Shown: piece by piece, positions 23,871 to 36,208 of the stretch
Numbering within the stretch: position 1 is the first letter of the stretch
How the letters are laid out: each line of letters opens with the position of its first letter
Origin: an uncultured Magnetococcales bacterium
GTDB taxonomy: Bacteria; Pseudomonadota; Magnetococcia; Magnetococcales; CAYFNE01
Direction: 5' to 3'
DNA: 64,000 nucleotides
NCBI GenBank assembly: GCA_964344355.1
Contig: CAYFNE010000020.1
Location: 120-64,119 of the forward strand
The notes under the pieces: model-generated
The model's input: only the letters and a program-made list of their open reading frames with translations
Told to the model about the DNA's origin: nothing
The model's database searches: none
Position numbers and translations under genes: made by a program

Positions 23871-25958
23871 TCAACCGTTGCGTTCATCTCCCGGAGCCAG
23901 ATGGAACACCCCCTGGCTCTTCCACGCTTCGAATACCCGCGTCACCGATTGGCTCTCGACCCGATTCCACCCCTGGCGCGACACCCAGCCCTCGATTTCC
24001 CGGACCAACATGCCACGCACGGTAACGGGAACGACCTCCAACATGGCACGGGCATCATCGGACCAGGGCAGGGATTCCTTCACCCGGGCGGAGCCCTTTT
24101 TGAAAGTCTCCAGCACCCCCTGGAAAAAGGGGGCGTCGATCCGCGCCAACCCCTGGCGCCGGGCGATGCTTTCCACCGCCCGCCGGCTCATTTGCCGGGA
24201 CATGCCGGCCGGTATGTTTTCCAACAACCGCTGCGCGTCCGCATCCCAGGGCATGGCGTCCGATACTGCCATCTCTTCCGCCGGTCGGGAGGGTGGTGGA
24301 CCACCCGGATGGCCGTCCCCCCGGGCCATTTTCGCCGCCATGTGCCGGCGCGCCCGGTCGATGCCGGCCTCGGCCACCGCCAGGGTGATCCGTTCCGCGC
24401 CCTCCTCACGGGCATGGGCGAGGATGCTTTTGCGCGTCGCATCGCGCATGAACCCCTCCGGCACCCGCTGCAAACGGGCCTCCGCCTCCGGGGACCAGAC
24501 CGGTTCCGGCGCCTCCTCCCGGTTCAAAAAGGGCGTGACATGGGCCGGCGTCACCACCTCGGACTTTTCCCGACGGGCCGATTTTTCGGACCGCCGACGG
24601 ACGTTGGCGCGCAGCGATTCATCGCTCAGGGCGGCCACCATCTCCTCGGCATCCCGGCTCCAGGTGGGGGCGGATTCCTCGGCCCGGCGCACCACCGCCT
24701 CCATGGTCTTGTGGGCATGGTTCGGCATCAGGGCGGCGGTGGCCTCCTCGACGATGCGTTCGGTGATCACCGTGTGGCCCCGATCCTGGGCATAGCGCAA
24801 AATGGCCATGCGCGCCATCTTGCGGGCGAACACCGGCACCCGCTCCATGCGCGCCTCCGCCTCCCGGCTCCAGGTGGTGGTGAACCCCGCCACCCGGTCC
24901 ACCTCCGGCGTATGTTCCCGGCACGAAATCAACAGATCACAGGGGGCCGCGCGCAACAGATTTTCCGTCACCCAGCCGATATCGAGACCGTCATCGGCAT
25001 GAATGCCGGTTTTTCCCAGGGTCACCAGAGAGGGTTTGCGTTCCTCCAGGAAACGGGCGATGGAGACGGTCGGTTTACCGGCCAACAACACGCACTCCAC
25101 CGTCATCCCCCGTTCCCGGGCGATGCTCTCCCCCACGTCCAGATGGGCCTGATAAATTTTCGCCAACCCCGAATCGATGATCTCCTCATGCAGTTTTTCC
25201 TGCTCTTCGAACTTGAACACCTCGGCCCCCTCCTCGGAGAGCACCCGGGTGATGTTGTTGAAGACCACATAATGATAATAGGGATCGAAGGCGGCCACCA
25301 GGATTACCGGCCGTTGCCAACGCCGGCCCAGCTCCAAGGCCGTGAGCAGCCCCCCGTAGGACCGTTCCGAACCGTCCAGGGTGGCGACGATGGATCCGTC
25401 GGCCGCTTCACCCGCGTCCGGTTTCACCACCAGGGTGTCGATGGTGGTACGCCGCACCACCCGTTCACAGACCCCCCCGATGGATTCCCCGGGCACCGCC
25501 CCCACGCCCCGGGCGCCCAGGATCAACAAATCATGATCGCCACGCCGCACGGCATCGGCCAGAACCCGATAGTTCTTGCCCTCCAGGGAGAGCCGGTCAT
25601 AAGGAATACCGGCGGCATCGGCCGCCTTCTGTCCCACGTCCAGATAGGATTCACTGATCAGGTTCAACCCCTTGGTAATCAGGGTGTCATGGGTTTCCCG
25701 CTGTTCTTCCAGGATTTTTTCCTGGCGGTACTGTTCCGGCAAGCCGCCTTCCATCTGCCGGAACCGATCATCGTGCAGCCGGGCGGCAAAGGCATGGATA
25801 CCGGTGATCCGCGCCCCGGCGGTCAACGCCGCCAACGCCAAACCCCGGTTCAATCCCTGGTTGGCCGGCTCCGAAGAGTCCAGGGCCACCAACAACCGCG
25901 AATAGAGGGGGTGGGTTTCCGGGAGTGATGAAGCCGCATTGTCCGGTTCGCGCATCAT
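23871..25958 (-). CDS. Tandem universal-stress (Usp) domains followed by five PCP_red-like repeats
   Basis: Usp signatures 'LILGARGVGAVPGESIGGVCERVV' and 'VTLGKTGIHADDGLDIGWVTENLL'. Five ~45-aa repeats start 'W[SD]xxAExxLxxVP' at about aa 362, 432, 487, 570 and 631. Confidence 0.8.
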   Translation of the reverse strand: MMREPDNAASSLPETHPLYSRLLVALDSSEPANQGLNRGLALAALTAGARITGIHAFAARLHDDRFRQMEGGLPEQYRQEKILEEQRETHDTLITKGLNLISESYLDVGQKAADAAGIPYDRLSLEGKNYRVLADAVRRGDHDLLILGARGVGAVPGESIGGVCERVVRRTTIDTLVVKPDAGEAADGSIVATLDGSERSYGGLLTALELGRRWQRPVILVAAFDPYYHYVVFNNITRVLSEEGAEVFKFEEQEKLHEEIIDSGLAKIYQAHLDVGESIARERGMTVECVLLAGKPTVSIARFLEERKPSLVTLGKTGIHADDGLDIGWVTENLLRAAPCDLLISCREHTPEVDRVAGFTTTWSREAEARMERVPVFARKMARMAILRYAQDRGHTVITERIVEEATAALMPNHAHKTMEAVVRRAEESAPTWSRDAEEMVAALSDESLRANVRRRSEKSARREKSEVVTPAHVTPFLNREEAPEPVWSPEAEARLQRVPEGFMRDATRKSILAHAREEGAERITLAVAEAGIDRARRHMAAKMARGDGHPGGPPPSRPAEEMAVSDAMPWDADAQRLLENIPAGMSRQMSRRAVESIARRQGLARIDAPFFQGVLETFKKGSARVKESLPWSDDARAMLEVVPVTVRGMLVREIEGWVSRQGWNRVESQSVTRVFEAWKSQGVFHLAPGDERNG

Positions 25959-26182
25959 GATTCGACCCCTTCCGCCCGTCTGCCGCCGTAACGCCCGCGC
26001 AGGGCGCCGATGGCGAAAAACAGGACGCCGGTCAGAAAAATGGTCACATGCACCCGGCTCACCGGCATGCTGCCCCGCCAGAACAGCATCAGGTCCAACG
26101 TCCCGAGAAACATCAGGATAACGCCGAACACCTTGAAAATGACCCCCTTGCGCGAGGGTTCAGGGTTTTCTTCCTCCGACAC
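25955..26182 (-). CDS. Small two-TM membrane protein
   Basis: Hydrophobic 'VIFKVFGVILMFLGTLDLMLF' and 'VHVTIFLTGVLFFAIGAL'. Stop overlaps the Usp start (ATGA) and the start overlaps the radical-SAM gene end, suggesting translational coupling. Confidence 0.55.
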   Translation of the reverse strand: MSEEENPEPSRKGVIFKVFGVILMFLGTLDLMLFWRGSMPVSRVHVTIFLTGVLFFAIGALRGRYGGRRAEGVES

Positions 26183-27404
26183 GGCTACGCATCTCCATCA
26201 TCAATTCCGGGGTTATGGCGGCCAACCCCTTTTGCCGGGCATACCGCTCCACACCACTTTTTACCATACTTCGCAGGAAAAAGGGCACCTGTTGCAATCG
26301 CTCCCGGGCCTCGGGGCTCCATTCGGCGACGACCGGCGGCGATGGCGCCGGGGATGTTTCCGGTTTTTTTCCCGGATCGTACTCACACCAGGGGTCGGCC
26401 CCCATCAGGTCGCCGGTGGCCGACAAGGCCCGGGCGCGGCAACCGCCACAGACGGCATGGTGCTCACAATCGGCACAGGCGCCGTGATAAACGGGTGCGC
26501 GAAGCGAACTCAGGGTATCATCGCGATTCCAGATCTCCGCCAGCGGCCGTTCCAGGAGATTGCCCAGGGAGCCGGGCATATAGGGGCAGGGGGTCACGTC
26601 CCCTTCGGGGGTGATGCGAAAATAACCGGTGCCGGCGATGCAACCGCTGGTGGCGCCGCGCATCAATTCGGAATCGGGATCGGCATCGGCCACCAGGCGC
26701 AAAAAATGGGGCGCACAGCGGGCCCGCACCATGGTGCGCCCCTTGTAGGTCTCCTCGGCGCGCACCAGGTATTGCAACATCTCCTCATATTGCCGGGGGG
26801 TGATGTCGCTCATCCTCTGACCACGGCCGGTGCAAACCAGGAAAAACACATTGGCCGCCCGCGCCCCGCGGTCGGCGGCCAGTTCGATCAACCGCGGTAT
26901 TTCCTCATAATTGCCCCGGGTAACGGTGAACTGCATCTGGAATTCCATCCCCTGACGCCGCATTTCATCCACCGCCGCCAAGGTCCGCTCCCAGGCCCCG
27001 GGCAGACCGCGAAACCGATCATGGGTTTGCGGATCGATGGAATCGAGACTGACCCCGACTCCCTGGAAACCACTGGTTTTCAAACGGGGAATCAGTTCGG
27101 CGTTCAACAGGGTGCCATTGCTGCCCAGCACCACCATCAAACCCCGTTGTTCGGCGGCGGCGGCGACCTGCCAGATATCCTCGCGCAACAACGGTTCCCC
27201 GCCGGTGAGGATCAACATCGCCCCCGGACAGAAGTCTCCCAGTTGCGCCACCACCGCCAGGGCTTGCGCCGTGGAGAGATCTCCCCGACCGCCATCCAGT
27301 TGATCGGCATCGAGATAACAGTGGGGACAGCGCAGATTGCAGCGGCGGGTGAGGTTCCAGGAGATCAAAAAGGGTGGCGCCACCGGGATATCGGCTTGAG
27401 TCAT
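26160..27404 (-). CDS. Radical SAM/SPASM enzyme (AhbD/NirJ-like) with a C-terminal PCP_red-like domain
   Basis: 'NLTRRCNLRCPHCY' CX3CX2C motif. SPASM 'CIAGTGYFRITPEGDVTPCPY...CADCEHHAVCGGCRARA'. Tail 'WSPEARERLQQVPFFLRSMVKSGVERYARQKGL'. Confidence 0.85.
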   Translation of the reverse strand: MTQADIPVAPPFLISWNLTRRCNLRCPHCYLDADQLDGGRGDLSTAQALAVVAQLGDFCPGAMLILTGGEPLLREDIWQVAAAAEQRGLMVVLGSNGTLLNAELIPRLKTSGFQGVGVSLDSIDPQTHDRFRGLPGAWERTLAAVDEMRRQGMEFQMQFTVTRGNYEEIPRLIELAADRGARAANVFFLVCTGRGQRMSDITPRQYEEMLQYLVRAEETYKGRTMVRARCAPHFLRLVADADPDSELMRGATSGCIAGTGYFRITPEGDVTPCPYMPGSLGNLLERPLAEIWNRDDTLSSLRAPVYHGACADCEHHAVCGGCRARALSATGDLMGADPWCEYDPGKKPETSPAPSPPVVAEWSPEARERLQQVPFFLRSMVKSGVERYARQKGLAAITPELMMEMRSRVGGRKP

Positions 27405-27456
27405 GAGCGTCCTGACGGGATGGGCGGAAAAACCCGGGAAACCGGGGTGTTCGATT

Positions 27457-28908
27457 TCAACCCGAACGGCGGTCCCCGGACGAATGGAACACCGACGAGC
27501 GACCGAAAGGATACGCCGACCGGTTCATCAAGGTTGCCATTTTTTTCGCGGTTTCGCCACCGCGGGCGATACAGGCGCGCACCGAGACGCCATCCAGATA
27601 GTTGCCGGTCAAAAAAACCCCGGGCAACAGTTTCATCTGTTCGGCCACCCCTTCGACGAACAGACGGTGACCGATGGGATACTGGGGCAGGGCCCGATCA
27701 TGACGCACCACCCGCGCCATGCGCGGTTCGCCCTTCAATCCGGTCAAGCGCCCCAGGTCGGTCAGGGAGCGGTCGATCAACGCCTCATCGGCCTCGTCGA
27801 CCCTATCCGGCTGACGGGCGCCACCGAGATAGTTCATGAACAGCGCCTCGCCCTCCGGGGCACGGCCGGCGAACAGGGTCGAGGGCCACAGGGAACCGAG
27901 CAGGTCGAAACCGGGCTCCCGTTTGGGAACCAGGCAGCCGATGCCATCGAGATCATGGGTTATTTGCCGGCGTTCGAAGCCGAGATGGGTGATGGCCATC
28001 GGTGAATATTGCACACCGGCCAACAACAGGCCGAGATTGGGCGACAGTTCCTCCAACAATCGCGCCGCCTCCCAGGCCGGGGTGGCCACCAACACCGCGT
28101 CGGCCTCATACCGTTCCAGGCCATCCCCGGGTCCCCGGGCGGTCACCCGCCACCGGGTTCCCTGACGTTCCAACCCCTCTACGGTACGCCCGGGCCGGAA
28201 TCCCTCCCCCAGATGACCGGCGATGGCATCGGGCAGGGCGGCCATACCCTGACGGAAGGAAAAGACCCGCGCCCCGCAGGAGGCGGTGCGGATGCCGCGA
28301 ATTTTTCGGAGGAAGGCCCCTTTCAGGATACTGCCGTATTCCTCTTCCAGGGCGGCGAACTGGGTGAAGGTACTGCGCAGGCAGGCGCGTTCGCCATCCC
28401 CGGCCAGGGTGCCGGAGACATAGGGTTCGATGGCGCGCTCATAGATTTCCCGCCCGAACCGGCGGCTGATGAACTGGGCGACGGTCTCCTGCCCCTCCGC
28501 CACCGGTCCGCGGGGGATGAACGGTTCCAGCAACAAGCGCATCTTGCCCTTGAGGCTGACCAATGGCGTGCCGATGAACCCCCCGGCATGGAGTGGCACC
28601 GGCGTCGGTCGGCCATCACGCACCAGGTAGCGCCGTTTGGCCACCTCCTGACGAAAGACCATTTCCCGGTCCAGGCCGAGATTGCGGCAGAAAAAATCGA
28701 CTTCGGGCAGAAAATTGAAGATGCAGGTGGCGGCCCACTCCAACAGATAGCCGTCCACCCACTGGCTGTGGATCAGGCCGCCGGGCCGGTCGTTGCGCTC
28801 CAGGACCCGGACCCGTATGCCGAGGCGTTGCAGTTCGAAGGCTGCGGCCAGGCCGGAGATGCCGCCGCCGATGACGACGGCGCTTCGACCGGGCCGCAGG
28901 GTGATCAC
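27457..28908 (-). CDS. hemY: FAD-dependent protoporphyrinogen/coproporphyrinogen oxidase (HemY/CgoX family)
   Basis: 'AVVIGGGISGLAAAFELQRLG...LERNDRPGGLI' dinucleotide fold and family-typical length. GTG at 28908 sits 1 nt after the upstream stop. The ATG at 28962 would overlap the upstream gene by 53 nt. Confidence 0.8.
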   Translation of the reverse strand: MITLRPGRSAVVIGGGISGLAAAFELQRLGIRVRVLERNDRPGGLIHSQWVDGYLLEWAATCIFNFLPEVDFFCRNLGLDREMVFRQEVAKRRYLVRDGRPTPVPLHAGGFIGTPLVSLKGKMRLLLEPFIPRGPVAEGQETVAQFISRRFGREIYERAIEPYVSGTLAGDGERACLRSTFTQFAALEEEYGSILKGAFLRKIRGIRTASCGARVFSFRQGMAALPDAIAGHLGEGFRPGRTVEGLERQGTRWRVTARGPGDGLERYEADAVLVATPAWEAARLLEELSPNLGLLLAGVQYSPMAITHLGFERRQITHDLDGIGCLVPKREPGFDLLGSLWPSTLFAGRAPEGEALFMNYLGGARQPDRVDEADEALIDRSLTDLGRLTGLKGEPRMARVVRHDRALPQYPIGHRLFVEGVAEQMKLLPGVFLTGNYLDGVSVRACIARGGETAKKMATLMNRSAYPFGRSSVFHSSGDRRSG

Positions 28909-28909
28909 G

Positions 28910-30469
28910 TCACGCCTGCTGTTGCCGTTTGGCGGCAGCGCTGCGCACCCACCAGAACTCACCGGCGAACAGGAGCAGGGCGATCAAGATGCCGATCATC
29001 AACGGTTTGTTGCTGGGCGGCGGTTCGAGCAACAACCAGTACCAGGTGGTCATGGTGTGTTTGGAGCCGCTCTCGCTGTTGCTGCCGTCCCAGGCGGCAA
29101 AGGCGATGGGGATGAAACGGCCCTCTTCGAACTGAAGATCGTTTTCAGCATCTCCGGTCTTCAAGGAACGACGCATCACCACTTTCCAGACGCCATCGGC
29201 ATAGCCGCCCTTGACCGTCAAACCACCGCTGGCGGCATCCCGGGGTTCGATGGCGCCGAATCCCTTGGCATTCATCAGCACGGCGCTCTCGGTGCCATCT
29301 TTGGCGCCGCTTTTCCACTGCCAGATGTTGACCGGATGGGAGGTGTCGCCCATGCCGAAATAGGGCTTTTTCATCCCCTTGGGAATGACCACCGGCAGTT
29401 GCACGGCGACGGCGTCCTCATACAGTTCCTCGTCGGCGATGCTGGCGGCGGTCTCGTCTCCGGGGATGCTCCGGGTGCGGTCATCCCACTCCAGTTGAAT
29501 GGCGATCTCCTTGTCGTTATAGAGCGCCCGGGCGGAAATGGTGTCGTTGGAAGGGGTGAAAAACCGTTCCTTGCCGATGATCTGCGGGATCAAATAGAAG
29601 GTGGAAGGGGCGGCACCGTTCCAGGCGGCGTCATCCGGACCCTCCGGCAGGGCGCCTTCGACGCGCGTGGCCTTGATGACGGTGTTTTCCGCCTTGACCT
29701 TTTTACTGTTGGCGGCCAGGGAGACGACATAGTTGGCGACGTGCCAACGCTCCTCGACGGAGAGCTTTTTCTTGCTCACCGGATCGGCGAAGGAGGGCAT
29801 CTGCGTACCGGGGATGCCGACGGAGATGCGGGCGTAAATGTCCTTGGCGCTGTTGCTGCCGCGAAACGTCCAGGGCTTGGTCAGGTTGCGCGGCCAGGTG
29901 CGCTCTTCGAGGTCCCCCTTGAGCTTTTTGATGGCGACACCATTACCGGCCTTGCCGTGACACTCGGCGCAACGGTCGATGAACAACTCCTTGCCCTTGG
30001 CGAGACTTTCGGGGGAGGACGGCACCGGGGTACCGAAATCGACCTGGGTTTCGGCCTTTTCCTCGATTTCCGTGAACACCTTGATCTGCGCCACCAGGTC
30101 CCATATCTCCTGTTCCTTGAGGATATCGGCCCAGCCCGGCATGGCGGTCCCCGGCATGCCGTCGCGGATCATCCGGAAAATGTCCTCATCGTTGGGAATG
30201 AAATCCTCGAAACCGGTGGTCTTGATCTTGTACACGCCGCTGGTGAAATCCCGGGGCGGCGGGTTCATGAACGCCTGTCCCGGCCCGTCGCCGGCGCCCT
30301 CGGCGCCATGGCACCAGACACACCGTTTATTGTAAATCTCCAGCCCCTTGGCGGCATCGCCGCTCTTGGCCGCGGCCGGAGTGGCGAGGACGGTGAAAAA
30401 CATCACGGCCAGTACCCGTCCCAGGGTCGAAGCCGATAGAAATCGTTTGTTCATAGCGCTCATTTCCAT
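28910..30469 (-). CDS. Dihaem c-type cytochrome fused to an EB_dh/DOMON-like haem-binding domain, C-terminal TM anchor
   Basis: 'CVWCHG' and 'CAECHG'. C-terminal half matches the ethylbenzene-dehydrogenase gamma-like pattern ('ALYNDKEIAIQLEWDD', 'PVNIWQWKS', 'DGVWKVVMRRSL', 'FAAWDGSNSESGSKH'). Terminal TM 'LMIGILIALLLFAGEFWWV'. Start is 30469, 30463 or 30454. Confidence 0.8.
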   Translation of the reverse strand: MEMSAMNKRFLSASTLGRVLAVMFFTVLATPAAAKSGDAAKGLEIYNKRCVWCHGAEGAGDGPGQAFMNPPPRDFTSGVYKIKTTGFEDFIPNDEDIFRMIRDGMPGTAMPGWADILKEQEIWDLVAQIKVFTEIEEKAETQVDFGTPVPSSPESLAKGKELFIDRCAECHGKAGNGVAIKKLKGDLEERTWPRNLTKPWTFRGSNSAKDIYARISVGIPGTQMPSFADPVSKKKLSVEERWHVANYVVSLAANSKKVKAENTVIKATRVEGALPEGPDDAAWNGAAPSTFYLIPQIIGKERFFTPSNDTISARALYNDKEIAIQLEWDDRTRSIPGDETAASIADEELYEDAVAVQLPVVIPKGMKKPYFGMGDTSHPVNIWQWKSGAKDGTESAVLMNAKGFGAIEPRDAASGGLTVKGGYADGVWKVVMRRSLKTGDAENDLQFEEGRFIPIAFAAWDGSNSESGSKHTMTTWYWLLLEPPPSNKPLMIGILIALLLFAGEFWWVRSAAAKRQQQA

Positions 30470-30470
30470 C

Positions 30471-31238
30471 TTATTCGTGCCCCCAGGACCGCGGACGGTG
30501 GCCGGTGTAATCATAAAGGAAGAGAATCACCTTCCAGATCTCATCCTCGGTCAGAAAATCCTGCCAGATGGGCATGGAGGAGATCCACGGCGCCGCCTCC
30601 TCGGGCAGGCCCGGACCACCGGTGGCGATACGCCAGAACAGGAATCCCTCCTGCAACTGGGCGATGGTGCCGACATCCTGGAAGTTCAGGGGCACCGGAT
30701 TGAGACCGGGGGCGTAGGGTCCTTTGCCATCCAGTTTGTCGCCATGGCAATATTGGCAGTTTTGGATATAAACCGCGCCGCCCTCTTTGACCAACTCCTT
30801 GAACTTGGCCGGATCCTCTTTTTCGAACTTGCGGTAGGGATTTTCCAGCTTGCTCAGGTTGTACCGTTTGCCAAAGGCCTTGATCGAAGCCGGCGGGGCC
30901 GGGTGGATGCTGCGCAGTTCCAACGGCGCTTCATATTTGGGCTGCATCTTGACGAAACCGTAATAGCCGGCCGCCAACGGCACGACCAGGAACACGATGT
31001 TGCGCAACCATTTTTTCTTCGGGTCCTCCACCAGGGCGACGATCGGCCCGACCAGCTCCCGGGTACGCTCCTCGGAGAAGGTGAAGACGCAGAAGACGCC
31101 GGCGATGGAAAAAAACATGTACATGGTCAACAGACTGGCCGGGATCAACTGCCCCAACCAGACATCGAAGACCAGGATGAACCCGTAATAGATGGCCAGT
31201 ATCGTCAGGGCCGCTTGCAGAAGTCTTGGAATTTTCAT
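30471..31238 (-). CDS. Membrane-anchored (3 TM) monohaem cytochrome c
   Basis: Three N-terminal hydrophobic helices, then 'CQYCHG' and distal 'SSMPIW' Met-ligand region. Confidence 0.8.
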   Translation of the reverse strand: MKIPRLLQAALTILAIYYGFILVFDVWLGQLIPASLLTMYMFFSIAGVFCVFTFSEERTRELVGPIVALVEDPKKKWLRNIVFLVVPLAAGYYGFVKMQPKYEAPLELRSIHPAPPASIKAFGKRYNLSKLENPYRKFEKEDPAKFKELVKEGGAVYIQNCQYCHGDKLDGKGPYAPGLNPVPLNFQDVGTIAQLQEGFLFWRIATGGPGLPEEAAPWISSMPIWQDFLTEDEIWKVILFLYDYTGHRPRSWGHE

Positions 31239-31258
31239 CGTTCTCGCCTCAGCGCCCC

Positions 31259-32089
31259 CTATTTCGAACCCGCCAGATAGTCCACGAGCATTTCAAGCTC
31301 CTTGGCATACAGTTGTTCTCCGAGCCCCTCCGGCATCATGCCGGCATCGAACCCTTCCGCCACATCGGCGTTGGGGTCGAGCAGGGCCCGGCGCAGATAG
31401 TCCTTGTCCTTGGCGGCGCCGATTTTGGTCAAATCGGGACCCAACTCTCCCACCTCGTCGCCGATCTTGTGACAGGCGCCGCAGGTATTGGCGGCGATGA
31501 TCTCCTCGACCGTCGCATAGAGGGCCCGGGCGCCGCCGCCGTCACCGCTGTCTTCCTCCTCGGCCGCCGCCGCGGCGTCACCGGCATCGGAGGGGATCTC
31601 AACGGTGTTTTCCAGACCATTGGAGTCCAGCATGTAGGCGATCACCGCCTTGATCTCGACATTGGACAGGCTGATGCCGCCACCGGAAACATCGGGCATC
31701 GGACTTTCGGTGTCGTTGGAACCGGCCTTGCCGAATCCCGCCACCACATAGGCGGAGGGTTGCACCAGGGACTCTTCCAGATAGGCCGCCGGTTCCTTGT
31801 TTTCACCGCTGTAGCGGGAATCGGCGAACCGTTTGGGCACGTTTTCCCCCAACTTGTCGAGCATCGGCGCCCGGCCCAGGGAGTTGTGACAGAGGGTGCA
31901 GGTCCCCTTGCCGTTGACGATGCGCTCACCCAGGGCGATGAACTGGTCCATGTCCATGGCGCTCAGGTCGATCTTTTCCGGCTTGGGCGGCGCCGCCGGG
32001 GTGATCTGGGGAATGCCGAAGGAGGAATAACCGGCAAAGGCGAAGATGACCAGCAGGCTGAATACCGCGACTTTCAAAAAATTCTTCAT
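31259..32089 (-). CDS. Periplasmic dihaem cytochrome c
   Basis: Signal peptide 'MKNFLKVAVFSLLVIFAFAG', 'CTLCHN' and 'CGACHK'. RBS GGGGAG. Confidence 0.85.
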   Translation of the reverse strand: MKNFLKVAVFSLLVIFAFAGYSSFGIPQITPAAPPKPEKIDLSAMDMDQFIALGERIVNGKGTCTLCHNSLGRAPMLDKLGENVPKRFADSRYSGENKEPAAYLEESLVQPSAYVVAGFGKAGSNDTESPMPDVSGGGISLSNVEIKAVIAYMLDSNGLENTVEIPSDAGDAAAAAEEEDSGDGGGARALYATVEEIIAANTCGACHKIGDEVGELGPDLTKIGAAKDKDYLRRALLDPNADVAEGFDAGMMPEGLGEQLYAKELEMLVDYLAGSK

Positions 32090-32099
32090 GATCGCTCCC

Positions 32100-33962
32100 C
32101 TACTCCTTCCAATAACCGGACGGCGCGGTCTTCTTGCCGCTGACCGTGCTCAGCCAGAAGACGAAGATGACCATGGCCATGAAGATGATGGTTCCGGCCG
32201 AAACGACGTTGGCGGCATAACCCAGGGTCGGCGTGAAGGCGTCGGGTGAGTTGTCACGCATGATGTCGACCACGTGCCAGTGCTGACGGATACCGGAGCG
32301 GATGTAACCCATGAGTCCCATCAACCAGGTGAAGGAGACCGCCAGCAGGAACAGGGCATACTGGGATTGGGTCGGCATCCGTCCCCAACGCAACGGGGCC
32401 ACCTCCTTGGCGCCCTTGTACATCAACGAGTCCAACACGCCACTGGCGATGATGATCACCAACGTCGTCAGCACCTGGGGAATGGAGGCCGCCACCTTGT
32501 AGACGGTGTTGGTGAAATAGCCGTAGAAAACACCGAGAATGAGGATGTTGATGATACCGGTGGTGAACAGGGCCACCTGGGCGGCGTTGCCGGCCTTGAC
32601 CCAGGGCACCACCGGTACCTTGTTGGCCCGCCGATAGTAGAGAAAACTCAGGGCGGTGAAGAGAATCATGATGTTCACGGCGGTGTTCTTGGCCGGCATG
32701 ATGCCCAACGGTCCCAGATATTTGTGATAGGGTCCGCCCAGGGCCTGAAGCTCCTGGTTGGTCAACACCAGGGTGTGCGGGGTGAACCAGACCAGGAAGG
32801 CGCCGACGATGACGAAGGCCAACCATTTGATGCGCCCGGTGTAACGGTGCGCCCCCTCGCTGCGGCCCATGCCGCACCAGAGGTAATAGTTGGCCGACAG
32901 GAACAGGGTGCCGATCAACACCGCCTGGATGATGAACAACCAGGCGAAGACGCCACCCATGAGGGTGATACCCATCTGTTGGCTGTAGGCATAGATTTCG
33001 GCGGTCAGATAATATCCGGCGAAGGGCAGCGGCAGCAGGGCGGAGATGGCGACGAAATTGGCGTTGTAACCCATCCAGTCATAATGGGCCCGATCCTCGG
33101 CCTTGGTGGCGCTGAGAAACTTGAAGGCGGCATAGGCGCCGACCACCGAACCACCGTAGGCGACGTTGGCCACCACGCGGTGCAGGTTGATCGGGTTCCA
33201 GAGGAAGTTGTGCATGGCGGCCCAGGTGTCGCCGGAGAAGGTGCCGGCGGCATCGACGCCGGCCGGGCTCATCATGAAGGTGAGCCAGGCGTTGGCCAGC
33301 AACATCAACACGGTGCCGACGGCGTTCAACATCAGGCCCAGGGTCAGATGCACCCATTTCCGGAAACCACCCTGGAGCCAGTGCCAACCGTAATAATAGA
33401 TGTACAGACAGGCGCTCTCCGCGAAGAACAGGAGCGCATAGTAGAACATCGACTCCTTGAATATGGTGGAGAGATAGAAGAACAGGTCGGGATAGAAGAC
33501 GATGAGGCCGAACGCCAGCAGACCGCCGAGGATGGCCGTCAGGGAGTAGGCGGTGATGCTGACCTTGATGAACTCATAGGCCATGTTGTCATAACGCCGA
33601 TCCCGGGTGCGCATGCCGATGGCTTCGATGATGAACACGAAGATCGGCACCGCCAGGACGAAGGCGGCGAACCAGAGATGCAGTTGCGCCACCAGCCAGA
33701 CGAAGACCCGGCTGTTGATGCCGGCGATCTGCGGATAGTCCTTTTCGGTCAGCTCGGGGGCCGGCCCGTACAGCGGTTTTTCGGCCTCGGCGGCCCCATC
33801 CCCGGCGGCGGACTCAGGGGCGGCCTCTTCGGCCCAGGCGGTGGAGAATCCCAGATGCTCCGAGGAGAACTCCGCCAGGGGAGCCCCCCACTGCAACAGC
33901 ATCACTGTCAGGAGGGTGATGGTGAAAAACCATCCCGGTTTCAGAAAAAAGCGCGGCCTCAT
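32100..33962 (-). CDS. CydA-like integral membrane subunit (cytochrome bd superfamily), no CydB partner
   Basis: 'VFVWLVAQLHLWFAAFVLAVPIFVFIIEAIG' parallels E. coli CydA '[28 protein letters not shown]' (His19). 'NPINLHRVVANVAYGG' parallels 'NPVAQVKFVHTVASGY' (His186). 'IRQHW' parallels 'GRQPW'. Extra N-terminal TM segment and Ala/Glu-rich linker. Confidence 0.8.
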   Translation of the reverse strand: MRPRFFLKPGWFFTITLLTVMLLQWGAPLAEFSSEHLGFSTAWAEEAAPESAAGDGAAEAEKPLYGPAPELTEKDYPQIAGINSRVFVWLVAQLHLWFAAFVLAVPIFVFIIEAIGMRTRDRRYDNMAYEFIKVSITAYSLTAILGGLLAFGLIVFYPDLFFYLSTIFKESMFYYALLFFAESACLYIYYYGWHWLQGGFRKWVHLTLGLMLNAVGTVLMLLANAWLTFMMSPAGVDAAGTFSGDTWAAMHNFLWNPINLHRVVANVAYGGSVVGAYAAFKFLSATKAEDRAHYDWMGYNANFVAISALLPLPFAGYYLTAEIYAYSQQMGITLMGGVFAWLFIIQAVLIGTLFLSANYYLWCGMGRSEGAHRYTGRIKWLAFVIVGAFLVWFTPHTLVLTNQELQALGGPYHKYLGPLGIMPAKNTAVNIMILFTALSFLYYRRANKVPVVPWVKAGNAAQVALFTTGIINILILGVFYGYFTNTVYKVAASIPQVLTTLVIIIASGVLDSLMYKGAKEVAPLRWGRMPTQSQYALFLLAVSFTWLMGLMGYIRSGIRQHWHVVDIMRDNSPDAFTPTLGYAANVVSAGTIIFMAMVIFVFWLSTVSGKKTAPSGYWKE

Positions 33963-35953: not shown

Positions 35954-35967
35954 TTGACCTATATCAA
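35954..35967. promoter_or_regulatory. FNR/CRP-family palindrome TTGACCTATATCAA
   Basis: Near-perfect match to TTGAT-N4-ATCAA, in the divergent gap between the cytochrome train and the nosZ-like train. Confidence 0.55.
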
Positions 35968-36194
35968 TTAACTTCAATTGCCGGCCAGCTCGTTTATAAA
36001 TGGCCGTCTCCCCGGCCGGCCAAACCGGGGGCCGGAAACGAGGATCGAAAATCATCCCCATGGCCGCCCCTCCCAACCGGTCGCAACCGCCGCCGCCACT
36101 CCGGAACACCGCGGTACGATCCGACCGCATCCCTTGCGGGATCGGAGCTCCGCCCCCTATACTTGACCCGGATCAATAACCGGCCAACGGTTAA

Positions 36195-36208
36195 TTGACC
36201 TAGGTCAA
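36195..36208. promoter_or_regulatory. FNR/CRP-family perfect palindrome TTGACCTAGGTCAA
   Basis: Perfect dyad TTGAC-N4-GTCAA. A TATTGC hexamer at 36231-36236 would place the box centre near -41.5 for plus-strand transcription. Confidence 0.55.

Follow-up and report, generated by a model that had tools for sequence, protein, structure and literature searches.

AhbD and NirJ2 are radical S-adenosylmethionine (radical-SAM) enzymes with a CX3CX2C core and a SPASM domain that holds two sets of auxiliary-cluster cysteines. AhbD serves organisms of the coproporphyrin pathway that have no other Ahb enzymes, a hybrid pathway to haem that is already known (PMC13564367). The cytochrome bd superfamily includes the OR-N2 subfamily (Murali, Gennis & Hemp 2021, bioRxiv 10.1101/2021.01.16.426971), and Nitrospira moscoviensis has a 'bd-like_3 / alt_NxrC_2 / two cytochrome c' cluster that ranks in the top 40 genes by transcription and has conserved counterparts in anammox bacteria (PMC6606698). 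The window analysed here, a stretch of 64,000 nucleotides from an uncultured Magnetococcales bacterium (GCA_964344355.1, contig CAYFNE010000020.1, positions 120 to 64,119), encodes an OR-N2-type complex next to a radical-SAM/SPASM enzyme of the AhbD/NirJ2 lineage that ends in a PCP_red domain (the tailed enzyme). The best reading of the locus is an accessory module of four genes, encoding a second HemY-type oxidase (HemY2), the tailed enzyme, a small protein with two predicted transmembrane segments (the 2-TM protein) and a universal stress protein (Usp) with PCP_red repeats (Usp-PCP_red). With moderate confidence, this module is proposed to prepare or deliver a haem-type cofactor for the adjacent bd-like complex, which lacks CydB, rather than to serve the housekeeping haem b pathway, because its genes are surplus to the haem pathways of the host and are tied to OR-N complexes by position and by presence and absence. 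Loci, genomes and contigs are cited below by handles beginning with L, G and C.

The complex in the window (28910..33962, reverse strand, as are all genes of the locus described here) was assigned to the OR-N2 type from its Pfam domains and recurring gene order, and comprises a CydA-like gene (32100-33962), two cytochrome c genes (31259-32089 and 30471-31238) and a dihaem-c/EB_dh (NxrC-like) gene (28910-30514). The radical-SAM and HemY2 genes lie downstream of these cytochrome genes and run in the same direction, as had been described in the earlier note, which was made by a model from the DNA letters alone. The gene order is the same as that of the N. moscoviensis cluster, from which the window operon differs in adjoining a nosZ-type cluster and not nitrite oxidoreductase genes. 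An identical order was found in L021, L023, L046, L059-L062, L064, L119, L121 and L123-L131, and the OR-N operon shares a single locus with the tailed enzyme in L021, L023, L046, L059-L062, L064 and L078, as well as in L123, L128 and L131. In Poribacteria the two are 22-35 kb apart.

Presence and absence follow the same pattern. A strong CydA-like homologue (43-63% identity) accompanies the tailed enzyme in 33 of 33 genomes. Among 301 genomes of Pseudomonadota, 10 have both partners, one has the enzyme only, one has the CydA-like gene only and 289 have neither (Fisher p 8e-17), and among 201 genomes of Nitrospirota the corresponding numbers are 61, 4, 3 and 133 (Fisher p 1e-42); these counts and p values include related genomes, which overstates their independence and weakens the case to that extent. 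Since related genomes are not independent, the patchy distribution within families is more telling than the Fisher p values: the pseudomonadotal positives are spread over four families of the order to which the window belongs and one further family, and within the sampled genomes of that order the tailed enzyme is present in 4 and missing from 27 listed. Synteny and this near-perfect co-occurrence support one of two functions that the earlier note had offered for the pair of genes, namely a role dedicated to the neighbouring CydA-like/EB_dh complex.

The tailed enzyme itself (26160..27404, 414 amino acids) was characterised by Pfam, NCBIfam, a core-column tree and an AlphaFold2 (AF2) model. 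Pfam places Radical_SAM at residues 17-175 (E 1.4e-23), SPASM (PF13186) at residues 255-314 (E 5.4e-11) and PCP_red (PF08369) at residues 362-406 (26187..26321; E 1.7e-16, and 64 bits in a genome scan), and these matches, together with a reading of the motifs, confirm the domain composition first proposed from the letters. The CX3CX2C motif (C22/C26/C29) and the SAM-binding GGE motif (G68-G69-E70) are invariant in 28 homologues, as are eight further cysteines (C230, C255, C273, C310, C313, C319, C322 and C340). The SPASM cysteines would suffice for two auxiliary [4Fe-4S] clusters, as in AhbD, and the enzyme is apparently catalytically intact.

The strongest NCBIfam matches of the enzyme are NirJ2 (TIGR04055, 301.1 bits) and AhbD (TIGR04545, 300.5 bits), both about 200 bits under the equivalog cut-off of 500 bits that applies to AhbD and NirJ2 alike. 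NirJ scores 204 bits, PqqE 132 bits and the remaining peptide maturases less than PqqE. A homologue scan of species-representative genomes gave 80 loci. Tailed homologues, whose match extends to about residue 410, share 41-63% identity with the window enzyme and occur in Nitrospira and other Nitrospirales, anammox Planctomycetota, Poribacteria, Zeta- and Betaproteobacteria, Rhodothermales, Bacteroidota, Gemmatimonadota, Chloroflexota and 'Deltaproteobacteria'. Classical AhbD/NirJ2 homologues, found in Desulfovibrio, methanogens, Bathyarchaeota and Bacillota, share 35-42% identity and stop near residue 344 without a tail, which bears out the impression that the PCP_red tail is unusual for this class of enzyme.

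In a maximum-likelihood tree of 90 sequences, built from the radical-SAM and SPASM core columns only, all 37 tailed sequences form a single clade (SH-aLRT 99) that arises within the AhbD/NirJ2 radiation when AhbC/NirJ-like proteins serve as outgroup, a placement that is anchored by no experimentally characterised sequence. The tailed clade retains 53 of 68 AhbD-conserved columns, compared with 36 of 68 in the AhbC/NirJ-like proteins, and carries clade-specific substitutions, such as H185 of AhbD to N and P191 to C, whose interpretation would need a substrate-bound structure. Because of the nesting in the tree, the retained columns and the NirJ2 and AhbD scores, the enzyme is best read as an AhbD-derived subfamily, neither an AhbD equivalog nor a peptide maturase. 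The phylogeny that the earlier note had called for thus sustains the affinity to AhbD/NirJ that it had seen. The tailed enzymes differ from AhbD/NirJ2 in forming a clade of their own, in scoring 300 bits against the 500-bit cut-off, in the PCP_red tail (two to three copies in anammox bacteria) and in being tied to OR-N bd-like complexes and Usp-PCP_red, not to haem operons.

The substrate of a SPASM enzyme is often encoded by a neighbouring gene, and a small open reading frame (ORF) invariably follows the gene of the tailed enzyme. It is therefore conceivable, if quite improbable, that the enzyme modifies an OR-N subunit or the 2-TM protein by a cross-link or a change to a residue, as QhpD and anSME do for the enzymes that they serve, and that PCP_red serves as a protein dock. 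A structure search with the AF2 model (mean pLDDT 87) returned the peptide maturases PqqE, SkfB and SuiB as the nearest solved structures, which would fit such a role; these are generic SPASM enzymes and do not discriminate between functions, and we know of no solved AhbD or NirJ structure with which to compare them. The protein scores 300 bits against tetrapyrrole enzymes versus at most 132 bits against the maturases, with which it does not group, being nested in the AhbD clade. The small ORF encodes a hydrophobic 2-TM protein and not a typical precursor peptide. Its neighbours are also tetrapyrrole-related, including HemY2 and PCP_red and, in Poribacteria, a Cld-like protein, HEAT_PBS and a weak HemJ-like match below the cut-off.

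The genome from which the window derives (5.6 Mb, 221 contigs, completeness reported as 100%) encodes a contiguous hemE-hemN-hemY cluster on contig C107, with HemN at 613 bits (cut-off 325) and HemY1 at 321 bits, and one ferrochelatase gene (hemH) on contig C33; no ChdC, HemF or HemJ was found in it. From hemE-hemN-hemY and hemH, a complete protoporphyrin-dependent haem route is predicted to be encoded outside the window, and the radical-SAM and HemY2 genes are spare copies beside an ordinary haem pathway. The earlier note had suggested that the HemY and AhbD-like proteins together complete haem b synthesis by a hybrid final step that needs no O2. As an essential housekeeping function this is highly improbable and already contradicted, despite the adjacency of the two genes and the lack of a detectable ChdC in this genome. 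The genome inventory that the note had proposed returned the canonical pathway elsewhere in a genome reported as complete, the very finding it had named as fatal to that suggestion, and the enzyme is present in only 4 sampled genomes of the order and missing from the 27 listed above. True hybrid operons, moreover, use untailed AhbD.

The same genome carries, at C12:71709-74658 (compare L007 and L014-L017), a nirDLGH-like cluster with four AsnC_trans_reg2 domains followed by a NirJ/AhbC-like radical-SAM gene, whose product falls with the AhbC/NirJ outgroup in the tree. By its gene content this cluster is a separate module for a sirohaem-derived cofactor of the haem d1 type. It bears on the idea that the tailed enzyme is itself a NirJ-like maker of such a cofactor, unrelated to any coproheme route, for which its NirJ score of 204 bits and a denitrification gene in the window (in the nosZ-type cluster) could be cited. 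Since a distinct cluster with its own NirJ-like gene is already present on C12, and decarboxylases of the AhbAB/NirDLGH type occur in only 6 of the 33 enzyme-holding genomes, this idea is very unlikely.

Haem pathways in the 33 other genomes with the tailed enzyme are of several kinds. A ChdC-family protein is present in 23 and true HemN in 4, and 30 have a single HemY. Six have a separate classical AhbD, which scores 430-541 bits in the search in which the tailed enzyme scores 283-335 bits, and both types occur together in at least 11 further Nitrospirota genomes. In one Nitrospirota metagenome-assembled genome (G030), an ahbD-hemE-hemH-hemY operon with untailed ahbD (L148, G030:C39, 2743-7315) is, by its gene content, a clear case in which classical AhbD closes a coproporphyrin pathway, and the tailed paralogue adjoins a bd-like operon away from it. 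A Thermodesulfobacteriota genome likewise has its classical AhbD gene within a cobA/hemD-hemB-ahbD cluster. Haem operons thus carry the untailed form, and the coexistence of the two types, including in the genome with the ahbD-hemE-hemH-hemY operon, tells further against a housekeeping last step.

These genomes also bear on a less demanding alternative, in which the tailed enzyme is a plain isoenzyme of haem b synthase, that is, an O2-independent coproheme decarboxylase acting as a conditional back-up or booster under low oxygen, expressed together with respiratory complexes rich in haem, and forming, with HemY2 as CgoX, a second route of the coproporphyrin type. It agrees with the nesting of the enzyme in the AhbD/NirJ2 radiation and its retention of most AhbD-conserved residues, with the service of AhbD in coproporphyrin-pathway organisms without other Ahb enzymes, and with Nitrospira, whose sole alternative is the O2/H2O2-dependent ChdC. 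It would also fit three FNR/CRP-type palindromes (TTGAY-N4-RTCAA) at 35954-36208, upstream of the operon where the cytochrome and nosZ-type trains diverge, which suggest low-oxygen control; chance alone would give 0.37 such sites in the window, and 4 are present. The isoenzyme nevertheless appears unlikely. The tailed enzyme coexists with an equally O2-independent classical AhbD in anammox bacteria, G001, G002, G030 and the Nitrospirota genomes mentioned above, where genomes with both types have the classical one in their haem operons. Its distribution tracks OR-N and not the type of haem pathway, HemY2 falls outside the HemY clade of coproporphyrin contexts (see below), and the score is 200 bits short of the AhbD equivalog cut-off.

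One tailed homologue is labelled 'AdoMet-dependent heme synthase' by JGI, which, taken at face value, favours the isoenzyme. Because classical AhbD and the tailed enzyme are paralogues, the label may be an over-annotation, and automatic labels of this kind on tailed enzymes may mislead and distort reconstructions of haem pathways.

HemY2 (27457..28908; assigned by TIGR00562 and the HemY tree) lies immediately upstream of the radical-SAM gene, and its identification as a HemY/CgoX-type FAD oxidase holds. The ORF (27457-28962) matches Amino_oxidase in Pfam (E 1.2e-48) and the TIGR00562 protoporphyrinogen oxidase model at 254 bits (cut-off 97.85), and its product carries an intact GxGxxG motif (GGGISG). 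It is a full-length protein of the FAD amine-oxidase fold, like the PgoX/CgoX members of the HemY family that include the Myxococcus xanthus protoporphyrinogen oxidase (2IVD) and the Bacillus subtilis enzyme (3I6D). Its likely start is a GTG at 28908, one base past the stop codon (TGA, 28912-28910) that ends the EB_dh/cytochrome c gene before it. The match to 2IVD is weaker for HemY2 (208 bits) than for HemY1 (284 bits), and, unlike the reference HemYs, HemY2 accompanies the hemN-linked HemY1 as a second copy and belongs to an OR-N-linked clade of its own.

In DNA fetched around OR-N operons, a HemY gene adjoins the operon in 9 further loci of Pseudomonadota and in L023. In a tree of 28 HemY sequences, 10 of 11 OR-N-linked HemYs, HemY2 among them, form a clade (UFboot 92, SH-aLRT 83) that is distinct from the clade of HemYs from coproporphyrin contexts (96/96) and from the hemN-linked HemYs. 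Because no dedicated HemY occurs outside Pseudomonadota and one 'Delta' lineage, HemY2 is a lineage-specific addition to the module. A general role of HemY2 in making coproporphyrin for organisms of the protoporphyrin pathway was also considered. It fits Pseudomonadota and fails in the HemN-bearing genomes G029 and G032, each with a single HemY, and because these two genomes lack HemY2, and HemY2 falls outside the clade of HemYs from coproporphyrin contexts, a supply of coproporphyrin by this enzyme is kept as a partial explanation and not as a general one.

PCP_red is the C-terminal domain of subunit B (BchB/ChlB) of dark-operative protochlorophyllide oxidoreductase (DPOR). In DPOR, the C-terminal helix of BchB covers the protochlorophyllide cavity (PMC4071322). 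The AF2 model of the tailed enzyme has confident helices at residues 364-409, beyond a disordered linker. The tail matches BchB residues 448-521 (3AEK) and the stand-alone protein Asr4154 (2L09), and the PCP_red of the window is the same 45-residue helical domain as in these proteins. It differs from that of BchB/ChlB in being joined to a radical-SAM enzyme and in occurring as repeats within a tandem-Usp protein, and these two proteins are the only ones with PCP_red in the 5.6-Mb genome.

The tandem-Usp protein (23871..25958, 695 amino acids) has two Usp domains and four PCP_red repeats by Pfam, the repeats having been located in the genome scan at 24741-24872, 24369-24497, 24126-24248 and 23943-24065. 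Usp-PCP_red is the steadiest neighbour of the tailed enzyme: of 42 tailed-enzyme loci, about 32 have it within the fetched flanks, compared with none of the classical AhbD loci. In anammox bacteria the enzymes (Brocadia and Anammoxibacter; L026 9938-12028 and L046 10328-12094) are 588-696 amino acids long and have 2-3 fused C-terminal PCP_red repeats, and no separate Usp-PCP_red gene was found in the Brocadia locus. The small 2-TM protein (25955..26182, 75 amino acids) was predicted from an ORF with two hydrophobic segments, the ends of which overlap the stop of the radical-SAM gene and the start of the Usp gene. Counterparts in the same position were found by tblastn in L120, L122, L124 and L023, and ORFs of 57-78 amino acids follow the enzyme elsewhere. 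As read from the sequence, each Usp domain in the window has a G-x2-G-x9-G pattern resembling the ATP-binding motif of Usp proteins, with G or W rather than S/T at the last position. In the supplement of a low-O2 proteome of N. marina, the induced Usp proteins are 288-293 amino acids long and the radical-SAM proteins are unrelated ones, which provides no usable evidence on this pair.

The poribacterial locus L055 (4354-16644) has a richer set around the enzyme, comprising three further PCP_red proteins (one Usp-PCP_red x3 that also has a rubredoxin-like domain, and two small ones), an Fe-S carrier of the Mrp/NUBPL P-loop type, a HemJ-like membrane protein (weak, below the Pfam cut-off), HEAT_PBS, DUF420, a Cld/ChdC-like protein and an ABC-2 transporter. 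The DUF420 protein is one that we take to be CtaM-like. Judged from these gene contents, L055 is a setting of tetrapyrrole metabolism and oxidase assembly.

If the four genes act as a module for the OR-N complex, the radical-SAM enzyme would most likely act on a propionate side chain of coproheme or another iron porphyrin, by radical chemistry of the AhbD type. HemY2 would most likely oxidise the porphyrinogen precursor of this substrate where the normal protoporphyrin route does not yield it. By analogy with BchB, PCP_red would most likely be a lid over the substrate, or a hand-off or docking element common to the enzyme and its Usp partner, and the 2-TM protein may site the step at the membrane. 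The product would then serve the OR-N complex, as a modified haem or as haem b that reaches it by a dedicated channel. That classical AhbD coexists with the enzyme is a mild argument that either the chemistry or the delivery is distinct.

Several observations weigh against this proposal. The enzyme and OR-N operons are widely separated on the chromosome in Nitrospira, and one partner occurs without the other in G095, G290 and 7 Nitrospirota genomes, most of which are fragmented assemblies. Most phyla that hold the enzyme are without HemY2, including Bacteroidota and Rhodothermales genomes of the protoporphyrin pathway (G029 and G032), and HemY2 lies outside the clade of HemYs from coproporphyrin-pathway contexts (96/96). 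Plain formation of haem b would account equally well for the many AhbD-conserved residues that the enzyme retains.

A more specific form of the proposal is that OR-N bd-like complexes, including the highly expressed bd-like/NxrC-like ones of Nitrospira and anammox bacteria, carry a modified haem instead of haem b, made by the tailed enzyme from coproheme or a related iron porphyrin, with PCP_red and Usp-PCP_red as the hand-off system. This is put forward tentatively, as a possibility that is rather doubtful; if true, it would add a new branch to haem biosynthesis. No description of the module was found in the literature on bd-like cytochromes, on PCP_red/PF08369/Asr4154 or on AhbD in Nitrospira and anammox bacteria; the word 'radical' was not found in the text of Murali et al. 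(bioRxiv 10.1101/2021.01.16.426971), and 'radical SAM', 'universal stress' and 'heme biosynthesis' are not mentioned in PMC6606698. In nitrite oxidisers, few respiratory genes are more highly transcribed than those of OR-N bd-like complexes, which are also conserved in anammox bacteria (PMC6606698), and an AhbD-derived partner in near one-to-one association provides a handle on their cofactor and function. Such co-occurrence across phyla predicts a special haem or a dedicated route of haem insertion, and assigns PCP_red, an orphan domain, a function beyond chlorophyll synthesis that can be tested.

Within the 52-nucleotide gap between HemY2 and the radical-SAM gene, a GC-rich hairpin is followed by a run of T at 27433-27458 (CCCGGTTTCCCGGG TTTTT), which, as a match to the consensus only, could be a partial terminator or attenuator.

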